NCBI GenBank assembly: GCA_963663765.2
Contig: CAXXUA010000004.1
Coordinates: forward strand, 832,001-896,000
Reading direction: 5' to 3'
Source: Candidatus Poribacteria bacterium
GTDB taxonomy: Bacteria; Poribacteria; WGA-4E; WGA-3G
DNA: 64,000 bases
In this document: piece by piece, positions 24,308-59,164 of the stretch
How positions within the stretch are numbered: the stretch's first letter is position 1
Layout: each line of letters opens with the position of its first letter
Translations under genes and position numbers: made by a program
Notes under the pieces: generated by a model
Databases searched by the model: none
Told to the model about the DNA's origin: nothing
The model's input: only the letters and a program-made list of their open reading frames with translations

Positions 24308-24381
24308 TCGGGGCGACTGGATTCGAACCAGCGACCTCTTGAACCCCATTCAAGCGCGCTTCCGGGCTGCGCCACGCCCCG
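24308..24381 (-). tRNA. tRNA-Pro (GGG), CCA not encoded
   Basis: Minus strand reads CGGGGCGTGGCGCAGCCCGGAAGCGCG-CTTGA-ATGGGGT-TCAAG-AGGTCGCTGGTTCGAATCCAGTCGCCCCGA. Confidence 0.95.
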
Positions 24382-37125: not shown

Positions 37126-37305
37126 CAGGACTTACGCATCCAACGGTAGGCGGGGAATGCCTAAATGGCATTCATACCCGGGGAATGCCAAAAGGTATTC
37201 ATACCGTTGATTTCTTGATTTTGCGCTGGAAACTTAAAAAACGCTGAAAATTACATCATTTTCATCACAATTCTTGATTAATTCATGAAAACTGCGTAAG
37301 TCCTG
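37126..37305. mobile_element. MITE family D copy 2, with its REP invaded by Y+Z micro-inserts (37152-37222)
   Basis: TIR CAGGACTTACGCA/TGCGTAAGTCCTG. The body aligns with 17988-18108. Confidence 0.85.
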
Positions 37306-40943: not shown

Positions 40944-40964
40944 CTGCAAATAATTGGTAAGTAA

Positions 40965-41424
40965 CGACTTGTGCCAGTTAACTAAATGTTTATACTAAAT
41001 TCACATATATTGGGTATGGTATATAAACATTTCGTCCCTACTGGACTAAAGATCATCCAAAGCAAAAGAACGACGGTTAAATCCTCTTGTCTATGTGAAG
41101 TAATTTTTAATAAATACTTATTTAGCACAAGTCGCTACTTTCAGGCAATTGGTAATTTTTTCTGTACACGAATCTTGTCTATGACTGGGTTTTTCCGAAG
41201 ATAAAATTACCAATTTTACCAATTAGTAACTTAACGTAAATTGAGCAATATCCTGATTTGTGCCAGTTAACTAAATATTTATACTAAATTCACATATGTT
41301 GGGTATGATATATAAACATTTCGTCCCTACAGGACTGAAGATCGTTTCAACCTATGAGGGACACCTGCAAAACGTTATGCTTATGTGAAACAATGGTTTA
41401 CATAAAGTCATTTAGCACAACTCG
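40965..41424. mobile_element. Two copies of MITE family G (40965-41134 and about 41254-41424)
   Basis: Ends CGACTTGTGC(C/T)A...TAGCACAA(G/C)TCG with the internal CGTCCCTACNGGACT REP. A third copy lies inverted at 54706-54981. Confidence 0.75.
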
Positions 41425-41448
41425 TTAAGTAATAAGTTTCAATATATT

Positions 41449-42830
41449 ATAACGCAAGTTGCTACCTATAAGGTATAGACGAATAAACACCGTTTTTTAT
41501 AGAGTATAATACACTTTTCGGTAGTATTTGTAGCACAAACTGTATAATGATTAATTTATTAATTCGGTAATAAATTTTTCTCACACGGTAGGCGTGCTTT
41601 GTAAGCGCGCTGTTGAGACGTGATGTGCCAGCGCGCTTACAAAGCAGGTCTACCATCGGGGCGCGCTTACAAAGCACGCCTGCAGTTGGGGGGCGCGCTT
41701 ACAAAGCACGTCTACCATCGGGGCGCGCTTACAAAGCACGTCTACCATCGGGGCGCGCTTACAAAGCATGCCTGCAGTTGGGGGGCGCGCTTACAAAGCA
41801 CGTCTGCAGGGGAGTGCATGTGGGGGGCGCGCTTACAAAGCACGCCTGCAGGGGAGTGCATGTGAGGGGCGCACTTACAAAGCACGCCTGCAGTTGGGGA
41901 GCGCGCTTACAAAGCACGCCTGCAGTTGGGGGGCGCGCTTACAAAGCACGCCTGCAGGGGGAGTGCAGTTGGGGGGCGCGCTTACAAAGCACGCCTGCAG
42001 GGGAGTGCATGTGAGGGGCGCACTTACAAAGCACGCCTGCAGTTGGGGAGCGCGCTTACAAAGCACGCCTGCAGTTGGGGGGCGCGCTTACAAAGCAGGT
42101 CTACCATCGGGGCGCGCTTACAAAGCACGCCTGCAGTTGGGGGGCGCGCTTACAAAGCACGCCTGCAGTTGGGGGGCGCGCTTACAAAGCACGTCTACCA
42201 TCGGGGTGCGCTTACAAAGCACGTCTACTATCGGGGCGCGCTTACAAAGCACGCCTGCAGTTGGGGAGCGCGCTTACAAAGCACGCCTGCAGGGGAGTGC
42301 ATGTGGGGGGCGCGCTTACAAAGCACGCCTGCAGTTGGGGAGCGCGCTTACAAAGCACGCCTGCAGTTGGGGAGCGCGCTTACAAAGCACGCCTGCAGGG
42401 GAGTGCAGTTGGGGGGGGCGCTTACAAAGCACGCCTACAGTTGGGGGGCGCGCTTACAAAGCACGCCTGCAGGAGAGTGCAAGTGGGGGGAGCGCTTACA
42501 AAGCACGCCTGCAGGAGAGTGCAAGTGGGGGGCGCGCTTACAAAGCACGCCTGCAGTTGGGGAGCGCGCTTACAAAGCACGCCTGCAGGGGAGTGCAGTT
42601 GGGGGGCGCGCTTACAAAGCACGTCTACCATCGGGGCGCGCTTACAAAGCACGCCTACCAAGATGGGTTAGATTGAATTACCTAATTTATTTCTTAATCT
42701 TCATTTAGTTTGTGCATCTTTATGACTCAAACTAACAGTTTGTGCTACAAAATATAGGCTATTAATCAGCATTTTTTGATAATAGATGGTGTTTCTAGGT
42801 CTAATTATTGTAGATAGCAACTTGGGTTAT
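41449..42830. mobile_element. Nested MITEs enclosing the REP array
   Basis: Outer imperfect TIR ATAAC(G/C)CAAGTTGCTA at 41449 and 42830. Inner perfect 17-bp TIR TTTGTAGCACAAACTGT at 41527 and 42751. Confidence 0.7.
41587..42660 (+). repeat. REP doublet whose right arm is amplified to 30 copies with three linker classes
   Basis: One inverted GGTAGGCGTGCTTTGTAAGCGCGC, then 30 copies of GCGCGCTTACAAAGCACG(C/T)CT in units of about 30, 32 and 42-44 bp. Confidence 0.95.
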
Positions 42831-43292
42831 TATAGTGAAATCCAAAAATATATCTACACTCCCTGGTGAGGGTTATTCAGTTTTCAATATTTTTGATAGT
42901 ATTTTGCTATTCCGTTAATATTATGTGATACCATAATATTATGTGATACCATCTTGTCCATGTTTTTAGTTCCGTAGGAACGATATGTTTATAGAAAATG
43001 TTTTCTACCCCAATTGAGTTCCGTAGGAACGACATAGAAGAATAAACATATCGTCCCTACGGGACTAAAGAACTGGGGGAGGGTATTCGTTTTCTATAAA
43101 TATATCGTCCCTACCAAATCAACGCCAAATGCGCCAAATCAACGGTATGAATGCCATTAAGGCATTCCCCGTATGGCATTTGTCGGGACTAAATAGCGAT
43201 GTTCATGTTTCAATAATCTAAAATTGATGTATAAAGTTCGGTAAGGAAACCGAACCTACCGTCGTGTCAAAGTAATTATGGATTTTACTATA
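42831..43292. mobile_element. F-like MITE containing a truncated family E element and an X+Y insert (43115-43184)
   Basis: TATAGTGAAATCCA...TGGATTTTACTATA. 42869 to about 43235 is an inverted homolog of about 58855-59164. Confidence 0.65.
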
Positions 43293-43305
43293 AATGGAGC
43301 TGATT

Positions 43306-43442
43306 TATAGTAGATTTTAGAATTATTTTTACACTATCAGGTGTAGGAAGGAACTCCGATTCCCGACTATCAAGGCGTTCAGTCGCGATTCGGAGATCGC
43401 TCCTACAGAACAAGTGTAAACTTAATTGTATATTTTACTATA
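43306..43442. mobile_element. MITE family F copy
   Basis: Near-identical to 33597-33733. Confidence 0.88.
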
Positions 43443-43461
43443 AAGAAGTCTGGTGGTTTGT

Positions 43462-49878: not shown

Positions 49879-49970
49879 CGATTTTCCCCTTTACGTGATT
49901 CATACTATAACATGAGTTTGATAATAGATATATGAACTTCATTTTGCATAAAATCTTCTTCTCATAAACC

Positions 49971-49998
49971 CGGTAGGTGCGGTTTCCTAACCGCACCG
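49971..49998 (+). repeat. Single GTAG REP-like hairpin, possibly inside a decayed MITE (about 49911-50028)
   Basis: GGTAGGTGCGGTTTCCTAACCGCACCG. Confidence 0.6.
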
Positions 49999-50106
49999 AG
50001 TCCAAAAATCTGATTTATCATATTCACGTTACTATAGGTTCATGGACTATAAATTATACATGCTACGGACGAATTTTGCCATACCTATCGTATCATAAAT
50101 TTCAGG

Positions 50107-54379: not shown

Positions 54380-54536
54380 ATACCATTTTCATGTGATAAT
54401 GTCTCATTAGCAGCGGAAATCTGGTAGGAGCGACCTCACGGTCGCGACCGGGAGGTCGCTCCTACCAAAGAGAGTAACCCCCTGCCAGTAAACAGTAGAA
54501 TTCCTTAATGAGACAAGATTTATTTGAATTGGTATA
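54380..54536. mobile_element. MITE family A copy 3 (inverted)
   Basis: Reverse complement of 37327-37483, ending about 19 bp upstream of the WD40 start. Confidence 0.88.
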
Positions 54537-54705
54537 ATATGGCACTCGTCATTCAACTATACGCATTCTTGGATGCACTTATGTTTCTTACACCGAACAT
54601 AACGAGATGGTTGCAGGGTGTGAAAAGAATTTGTACTGAAATTTGCAATCAATCCAAATACACAATATACTTATTGGAAATCCCAATAACCAAACACCAA
54701 AAAAA

Positions 54706-54981
54706 CGAGTTGTGCTAAATAACTATATGTTAACCATTGTTTCACATAAGCATGACGTTTTGCAGGTGTCCTTCATAGTTTGAAACGATCTTCAGTCCCG
54801 ACAAATGCCATACGGGGAATGCCTTAATGGCATTCATACCCGGGGAATGCCAAAAGGCATTCATACCGTTGATTTCTTGATTTGGCGCATTTGGCGTTGA
54901 TTTGGTAGGGACGATATGTGCGCATTATAAACCTAATATATGTAATAACTTTGAAAACAATGGATTAACTGGCACAAGTCG
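54706..54981. mobile_element. MITE family G copy with a triple nested micro-insert (54800-54904)
   Basis: CGAGTTGTGCTAA...TGGCACAAGTCG. The REP AGTCCC^GTAGGGAC is split by 105 bp. Confidence 0.8.
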
Positions 54982-58771: not shown

Positions 58772-59164
58772 CAGGGTTATTCAGTTTTAGGAGTTTTCTG
58801 TTATTGAGATTTACTGAAAGTTAATACCCAAATGAGGTTTCCTAACTGCACCTTATACATCAATTTTAGATTATTGAAACATGAACATTGCTCTTTAGTC
58901 CCGACAAATGCCATACGCGCATTTGGCGTTGATTTGGTAGGGACGATATGTTTATAGAAAACGAATACCCTCCCCAGCTCTTTAGTCCCGTAGGGACGAT
59001 ATGTTTATTCTTCTATGCCGTTCCTACGGAACTCAAGAGAGTTAGATAACATTTTTCTATAAACATATCGTCCCTACGGGACTAAAGACACGGACAAGAT
59101 GGCATCACATAAATTAACGTCATAGCAAAAAATCATCAAAAATACCTAAAACTAAATAACCCTG
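58772..59164. mobile_element. MITE family E with a 9-bp target duplication, multiple GTAG REPs and an X insert (58903-58936)
   Basis: TIR CAGGGTTATT(C/T)AGTTTTAGG with a perfect flanking direct repeat CACATGATA at 58763-58771 and 59165-59173. Confidence 0.88.

Follow-up and report, generated by a model that had tools for sequence, protein, structure and literature searches.

The window, that is, the whole 64-kb stretch of DNA that was analyzed, contains very small hairpin units that lie inside REP hairpins and inside one another. When the window sequence was read again, the strings and coordinates of all four sites named in a preliminary description were confirmed: an empty REP-A target, a REP-A copy holding the unit X, a copy in which X itself holds the unit Y, and a depth-3 copy in which Y in turn holds the unit Z (Table 1). 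The 105-nt string of the depth-3 site occurs three times in the genome, in the same REP-A context. Two points of that description were modified. Z does lie within Y at the depth-3 site, but it does not split Y cleanly, as CATACC-G-TTGATTT has become CATACC-C-Z-C-TTGATTT. Moreover, the Y{Z} nest of the window, which had been called the same Y+Z pair, differs from the pair in the depth-3 site: its outer loop is TAAAT and not TTAAT, its inner stem is GGTATTC, its last letter is T and not G, and its host site is GGTAGGC^GCGCTGG.

The 9-mer CGTTGATTT was found eight times in the window, six of these within the described elements, compared with 0.94 ± 0.92 occurrences in 100 shuffles, none of which reached eight. 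Genome-wide, the 9-mer was found 792 times, against about 72 occurrences expected from base composition. Because of this excess over both the shuffles and the base composition, chance does not explain the family. Rfam showed no family at the element sites; the sole Rfam match of the window was a tRNA gene.

Table 1. Positions of the units, their targets and candidate genes (the caret marks the insertion point; G000 is the genome that contains the window)
Feature	Position	Strand	Description
Empty REP-A target	Window 58981-59000	+	AGTCCC^GTAGGGAC at 58984-58997; insertion point between C58989 and G58990
X alone	Window 58903-58936	+	34 nt, inside REP-A; stem CAAATGC/GCATTTG, loop CATACGC, tail GTTGATTTG
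X{Y}	Window 43115-43184	-	70 nt; Y (loop TTAAT) within the X loop at CATAC^GC
Second empty REP-A copy	Window 43053-43066	-	GTCCCTAC followed by GGGACT on the + strand; 50 nt away from the filled copy at 43115-43184
X{Y{Z}}	Window 54800-54904	+	Depth 3, 105 nt; within the REP-A hairpin AGTCCC^GTAGGGAC; parse 14 + 27 + C + 34 + C + 8 + 20 nt
X 5' half of X{Y{Z}}	Window 54800-54813	+	
Y head of X{Y{Z}}	Window 54814-54840	+	
Junction C of X{Y{Z}}	Window 54841	+	
Z core of X{Y{Z}}	Window 54842-54875	+	GGGG..GTTGATTT
Junction C of X{Y{Z}}	Window 54876	+	
Y tail of X{Y{Z}}	Window 54877-54884	+	TTGATTTG
X 3' half of X{Y{Z}}	Window 54885-54904	+	
Y{Z}	Window 37152-37222	+	71 nt; Y (loop TAAAT) with inner Y (loop AAAA, mutated stem) at the hairpin/tail junction, C..C letters
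tRNA gene	Window 24308-24381	-	
REP-A target			AGTCCC^GTAGGGAC; 479 empty with longer flank; AGTCCCGTAGGGAC, 598 occurrences genome-wide
Repeat target			GGTAGGC^GTGCTTTG; 155 empty
Repeat target			CTGCAGGC^GTGCTTTG; 594 empty
Repeat target			CTCTACCC^GACCTACG; 33 empty
X-loop target			CATAC^GCGC; 57 empty
Tandem array	G000:C5:1377881-1378268		About ten 36-nt units
Tandem array	G000:C6:362459-362845		About ten 36-nt units
1-kb repeat stretch	G000:C5 about 1375863-1376939 (L109 2864-3940)		Separate tandem DNA repeat; adjoins an element array
IS605-type element, three near-identical copies	G000:C5:688634, C3:287718, C5:550867		tnpA 139 aa, tnpB 370 aa, defined ends
Fourth tnpA	G000:C5:353059		Followed by a different transposase-like ORF
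RAYT-like Y1 gene (RAYT-1)	G000:C4:621598-622074		Within long arrays of a GTAG-tagged hairpin repeat of its own, GTAGGAGGGAACTCCGATTCCC; outside the window
RAYT fragment	G000:C10, contig end		Adjoins REP-C arrays

Each unit consists of a G, a hairpin with G-C pairs at its base, a C, and the fixed 9-nt tail, with a total length of 34 to 36 nt. In X-like units, the stem is paired throughout (GCCAAATGC/GCATTTGGC), and in Y units, the stem GAATGCC/GGCATTC has an internal loop and a GG..CC base. Compensatory changes were observed in the basal stem (GCCA/TGGC, GCCG/CGGC, GCTG/CAGC, GATG/CATC, and GTCA/TGGC) among loci of this genome and fetched Poribacteria loci. The predicted single-stranded DNA folds were -6.3, -13.8, and -22.9 kcal/mol for X, X{Y}, and X{Y{Z}} (z = -1.9, -3.0, and -3.9, respectively), and the predicted fold of Y{Z} was -12 kcal/mol. 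The two unit ends, G..AATGC and ..GTTGATTTG, do not form an inverted repeat. A GTAG or CGTC tag was found in neither X nor Y on either strand, and the fixed tag of the units is the 9-nt tail. A relation to integron attC sites was rejected by inspection only: the tail departs from the GTTRRRY consensus at a single position, and a paired RYYYAAC box was not seen.

In addition, a 60-nt long form of Y was observed genome-wide, for example at REP-C sites. Its loop holds a further tail-less hairpin of 22 to 25 nt (AGCATGC-GCGTATG-GCATGCT or CGAATGC-GCGTATG-GCATTCG, with compensatory changes), and the loop of this inner hairpin is the reverse complement of the X loop. The marker CCATGATTCATACC identified 78 copies of the long form, of which 29 contained a nested unit.

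Copies and insertion sites across the genome

The genome (6.35 Mb in 15 contigs, 97.8% complete) was searched with the pattern AATGC-N3-8-GCATT-N2-8-GTTGATTT. This search, of the genome-wide kind that the preliminary description had proposed, yielded 473 intact copies, and 435 of them were located outside crude ORFs. Among the cores, Y with loop TAAAT was counted 126 times, Y with loop AAAA 88 times, Y with loop TTAAT 47 times, X 52 times, and a hybrid of X loop and Y linker 39 times. Repeated contexts held 441 of the 446 clusters. The cluster architectures ranged from one head with one tail, which was seen in 241 clusters, up to stacks and two tandem arrays. Among 120 filled REP-A stretches, 40 carried a 34-nt insert, which in 24 cases was the exact X string of the window, and 41 were 69 to 70 nt long, with the Y loops TTAAT, TAAAT, and AAAA all found at the same X-loop point. 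Neighboring heads within one stack carried differing loops.

The numbers of heads and tails were often unequal. At REP-C sites (H, head; T, tail), we counted 79 HgTg, 17 HgTcTg, 12 HHgTcTg, and 4 HgTcTcTcTg architectures, and forms with excess heads were few. Composites that had a single head but two to six tails (GTTGATTT-C-TTGATTT..G) occupied ordinary C^G targets and had ordinary outer ends. A long autonomous copy, with a head at one end and a tail at the other, was not found in this genome, and none of 24 orphan-head candidates paired suitably with an orphan tail. The two tandem arrays both read as ORFs repeating GECLNGIHTVDL, and their neighbors are ordinary genes, encoding an alcohol-dehydrogenase-like protein and a WD40 protein. 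The 1-kb repeat stretch on contig C5 has several open frames on each strand, and the repeats that it encodes are rich in proline, alanine, and cysteine.

The ends of the units were defined by comparing filled and empty copies of the same host repeats. At four repeat targets, each with 33 to 594 empty copies, and in the X loop, a single rule described the insertions: the unit, including its final G, is placed between C and G. The ambiguity of the junction is one letter (G), and the filled and empty junctions showed neither inverted termini nor a target duplication, in agreement with the preliminary description. Its further claim that the inserts land mostly at C^G applies to these targets, but not to nesting into the Y tail. 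Insertions into REP-A always had the same orientation, with none inverted. The base 5' of the unit was C in 412 of 457 cases, and the two bases 5' of the unit were CC in 190, GC in 161, AC in 58, and TG in 30; only the C is fixed, and the insertion is polar and without duplication. Several of the targets are GTAG-tagged REPs of this genome itself, and the cut falls on GTAG or a few bases from it. As exceptions, GAGACCC^CGCCC accepts the unit minus its final G, and the REP-B loop, TAATCC-TG-AAAATCC, and GTAGG-AG-CGATCTCC would each need a changed base or a rarer progenitor.

The orientation of the units was compared with their surroundings. Co-orientation with neighboring genes was absent (145 versus 142), and the relation of orientation to local GC skew was weak or absent (odds ratio, 0.61 to 0.80; p = 0.04 to 0.35). 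Neighboring pairs at loci more than 5 kb apart had the same orientation in 134 cases, compared with 117 ± 6.8 in permutations, 15 of 2,000 of which reached 134. Along C5, C4, C6, and C3, the orientation was constant over hundreds of kilobases and then flipped; for example, C6 was mostly plus from 0 to 300 kb and mostly minus from 300 to 521 kb. These large-scale runs were modest after clusters were collapsed, and neither gene direction nor local GC skew accounts for them. A replication-strand bias was rejected, as the link with GC skew was weak or absent and the orientation runs were modest.

The junction at the depth-3 site of the window was also seen elsewhere. At the junction between the hairpin and the tail of Y, the unit minus its final G stands between two C letters in place of the single host G, so that the net gain is one unit length, with one G lost and two C gained. 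In this genome, C stood on the left in 89 of 93 cases and on the right in 185 of 199, and the product expected from a clean tail insertion, GTTGATTTGGTTGATTT, had no occurrence. Double tails spaced by one letter were found 1,115 times across 40 genomes of the genus, and the spacer was C in all of the 150 matches listed. Double tails spaced by two letters were found six times in the 40 genomes, and the five that were inspected had no hairpin head next to them and lay in unrelated sequence that is partly conserved. Because the same C..C junction was found in two host types, Y and the 60-nt long form, a single founder behind it is unlikely. Many schemes were tried by hand, with a single cut, a duplication, a staggered cut, integration of a circle, or opening of a hairpin, and none yielded the C..C junction. 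A single-strand cut-and-join reaction cannot by itself convert the host G to C..C.

Distribution among relatives and candidate enzymes

We surveyed 151 genomes of the Poribacteria phylum, among which related genomes are not independent samples. The family was present in all 37 genomes of the genus, with 5 to 473 copies, a roughly 100-fold range of which the genome studied here is the upper end. In the sister genus, 32 of 57 genomes were positive, mostly with 1 to 3 copies and in eight cases with 13 to 74. None of five genomes from other genera of the family contained the units, and beyond the family 1 of 50 genomes did, with a single match. Species-collection matches (at least two, or one of typical sequence) were nearly all from Candidatus Poribacteria, and the public runs that contained the region were sponge metagenomes or sponge-labeled samples. 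The closed genome G024 carried its own loop variants as dispersed identical copies; 34 of the 100 copies listed for it lay within one 80-kb stretch (G024:C1:4351191-4431668).

The closest species, G022, showed 77 to 89% identity over aligned blocks of at least 1.5 kb. The intergenic repeat blocks were lineage specific between the two genomes, and the comparison was at the level of these blocks and not of single units. Two such blocks lie in the window, at 40961-43445 (2.5 kb versus 40 bp in G022) and 49903-50033 (130 bp versus 3 bp). An ortholog of the sole insertion in a unique context (C5:500154) was found in none of the 39 other genomes. Logan contigs of four public runs ended at the repeat blocks, for example from 54403 to 54934 of the window, and none bridged an element.

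No candidate enzyme gene is located in the window, as the preliminary description had stated, and candidates were sought across the genomes. Reverse transcriptase (RVT_1, PF00078) had no match in this genome and was matched in one of five element-rich genomes. The IS110 DEDD domain (PF01548) was matched in none of five genomes including this one, and its control was matched in 7 of 14 genomes. IS91 Y2 gave no match, but its control was matched nowhere either. Y1_Tnp gave six matches in this genome (Table 1). The ends of the IS605-type elements bear no relation to the units. The GTAG arrays around RAYT-1 yield spurious repeat-encoded ORFs on both sides of the gene. Of the 37 genomes of the genus, 26 carried RAYT-1-like genes. 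Such genes were common also in families without any element found, and their presence made no significant difference to copy number (Mann-Whitney test, p = 0.20). Among 15 Y1/RAYT loci in five relatives, none was flanked by element arrays. The genomes G024 and G001, with 118 and 72 copies, showed no match to Y1, IS110, or RVT_1, and G010, with 107 copies, matched RVT_1 only and had no Y1_Tnp.

Y1/RAYT was accordingly rejected as the mobilizer, given the unrelated IS605 ends, the RAYTs that lie within their own REP arrays, and the missing phyletic link. The preliminary description had named an HUH/Y1 single-stranded DNA transposase and an RNA-templated route as possible movers and had suggested a co-occurrence analysis with RAYT/Y1, IS110, and reverse transcriptase genes. 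Neither route gained support: the Y1 genes have other repeats at their ends, reverse transcriptase was not matched in this genome or in most of the element-rich genomes searched, and the co-occurrence analysis showed no phyletic link, with two element-rich genomes matching none of the three families.

Mobility, passive spread, and known systems

At least eight context classes held the identical TAAAT core, and at least nine held the AAAA core. Together with the three Y loops at one X-loop point and the differing loops of adjacent heads, these cores call for no fewer than some ten to twenty independent insertions. The possibility raised at the outset that X and Y occur only at inherited positions is thus contradicted. 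In contrast to the Y cores, X was found only in REP-A hosts (52 of 52); because of this confinement, X may represent one insertion that then spread with REP-A. As nearly all clusters lie in repeated contexts, mobility of the units themselves is hard to separate from hitchhiking.

On balance, and with confidence only a little better than even, we favor the explanation that these are tiny non-autonomous mobile units, made of one hairpin and a 9-nt tail, that are inserted whole by a single-strand reaction of the HUH kind and owe much of their abundance to hitchhiking. The units would enter whole and in one orientation, beside a C in or near other hairpin repeats, that is, REPs, MITEs, and their own copies. 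The two ends would be recognized separately, the left as any C^G before a hairpin and the right as a sequence that must read TTTG. Separate recognition would lead to composites with extra tails in C^G targets and would leave composites with extra heads rare. Since the right end would have to read TTTG, an inner tail followed by C would be skipped and the inner copy would be locked in place. The same counts would be expected if the excess of tails arose from deletion of heads by slippage. A hairpin followed by about 9 to 14 nt and then the end, together with the strict polarity and the hairpin targets, would fit best with single-strand cut-and-join. The agent would probably be a trans-acting nuclease of the HUH kind, and the Y1/RAYT genes that are present are not associated with the elements. 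Copy number would have risen in good part by riding on host REPs and MITEs and by growth of tandem arrays.

The initial proposal of non-autonomous minimal mobile elements is therefore upheld as to their kind, but not as to any named enzyme route, and the tail junction is not the clean insertion that it implied. REP families can persist without a dedicated transposase, and REPs have also been reported inserted within small palindromes that occur empty as well (Di Nocera et al. 2013, PMC3733652). Because REP families can persist in this way, the enzyme behind the units may, by analogy, have been lost or may be of an unrecognized type. A bolder explanation, in which the units are near-minimal mobile DNA moved by an enzyme or host process of a kind newly linked to transposition, distinct from Y1/RAYT, IS110, and reverse transcriptase and leaving the C-unit-C signature, is possible but doubtful.

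The main competitor is a mostly passive origin, in which a few old insertions were multiplied as the host REPs and MITEs amplified. The apparent depth of the nests and the tandem arrays would then be products of gene conversion, and of slippage or unequal recombination involving the repeated head (C plus hairpin) and tail (C plus TTGATTT) modules. The repeated contexts of 441 of 446 clusters and the restriction of X to REP-A are consistent with such a history, and so are the 36-nt period of the tandem arrays and the lineage specificity of whole repeat blocks. The uniform C separators and the often unequal numbers of heads and tails are also what module slippage from one founder would be expected to produce. 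However, identical young cores stand in eight to nine unrelated contexts, neighboring heads of one nest differ in their loops, the same junction is found in Y and long-form hosts, and species-specific loop variants are scattered over the closed genome G024. We regard a mostly passive origin as rather unlikely. Template switching at hairpins during replication or repair, by which an ectopic unit is copied into another hairpin with no dedicated enzyme, appears less probable still. The precise ends at four targets with hundreds of copies and the microhomology of only one base argue against it, as does the limitation of the family to two genera, even though RAYTs and hairpin repeats are also frequent in neighboring families. 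On the other hand, targets and elements are both hairpins, no enzyme was found, the constant C before the unit could be copied donor flank, and the mild clustering of orientations (134 versus 117 ± 6.8; 15 of 2,000 permutations) would be in line with such copying.

Two further explanations appear very improbable. RNA-templated spread, in which the unit is transcribed, reverse transcribed, and inserted, has reportedly been proposed for the cyanobacterial small dispersed repeats. Conservation of the structure with compensatory changes is in keeping with this route, and the extra junction C could reflect untemplated additions; however, RVT_1 had no match in this genome and was matched in only one of five element-rich genomes, and the units were not co-oriented with neighboring genes (145 versus 142). 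The other explanation takes the units for functional sequence under selection, for instance an RNA hairpin or a site bound by a protein, and not for selfish DNA. The variation from 5 to 473 copies among species of one genus, the nesting, and the tandem arrays are difficult to reconcile with this view. There was also no polarity with respect to genes and no Rfam family at the element sites, although the invariant 9-nt tail, the covarying stem, and the intergenic location are features that a functional motif would share.

How DNA too small for coding or for two transposon ends is copied has been an open question since the cyanobacterial repeats were described. The Poribacteria units provide an independent case in another phylum, with a sharper anatomy consisting of a fixed tail and defined ends. 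The hundreds of filled and empty sites, the strong phyletic contrast over about 150 genomes, many of them closed, and the reproducible junction signature, together with this anatomy, make the question testable. If the units are indeed mobile, the agent that moves them is findable by way of the phyletic contrast (37 of 37 genomes versus 1 of 50) and the many closed genomes. In practical terms, short-read assemblies of sponge symbionts are broken at the units, which also give rise to spurious ORFs encoded by the repeats.

Finally, we compared the units with known systems. The small dispersed repeats SDR1 to SDR8 of Nostoc and relatives, reported by Elhai and colleagues in 2008, are said to be 21 to 27 nt long and non-coding, with a predicted hairpin, and reportedly lie inside other repeats and mini-transposons, nest within themselves, and are confined to a coherent group of species. 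No enzyme is known to move them. The Poribacteria units are likewise very small, non-coding hairpins that insert into repeats and into their own copies within a coherent species group, with no known enzyme. The preliminary description thus rightly saw a likeness in concept to the very small dispersed repeats of cyanobacteria. In a comparison by description only, they differ in their length of 34 to 36 nt, the fixed 9-nt 3' tail, the phylum, and the C..C tail junction. SDR5 is also described as inserted precisely inside HIP1 (Elhai 2015, PMC4390886). REP, BIME, and REPIN sequences with RAYT (a Y1 HUH enzyme) are characterized as 20- to 40-nt palindromic, high-copy, intergenic sequences whose abundance differs by species (PMC3116915, PMC3733652). 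The Poribacteria units resemble them as short palindromic sequences of high copy number and mostly intergenic location with species-variable abundance, and differ by having no GTAG/CGTC tag, no inverted doublets, and no RAYT flanked by units. The GTAG-tagged REPs of this genome are instead targets of the units.

The ends of IS200/IS605 elements and of their gene-less derivatives (PATEs) have no inverted termini and make no target duplication. Insertion of IS200/IS605 is polar, 3' of a short fixed motif (a tetra- or pentanucleotide), and a hairpin lies about 10 nt from the right end. Judged by these general features, the Poribacteria unit resembles an isolated right end in its geometry; it differs in having one hairpin and not two, in having only a C fixed at the target, and in having no matching resident IS. 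In contrast to MITEs derived from DDE elements, the units have neither terminal inverted repeats nor a target site duplication. No description of these Poribacteria units was found in the literature listings that were searched. Altogether, the hairpin-plus-tail units are kin in kind to the cyanobacterial SDRs and to REP-like elements and are distinct from both in anatomy.
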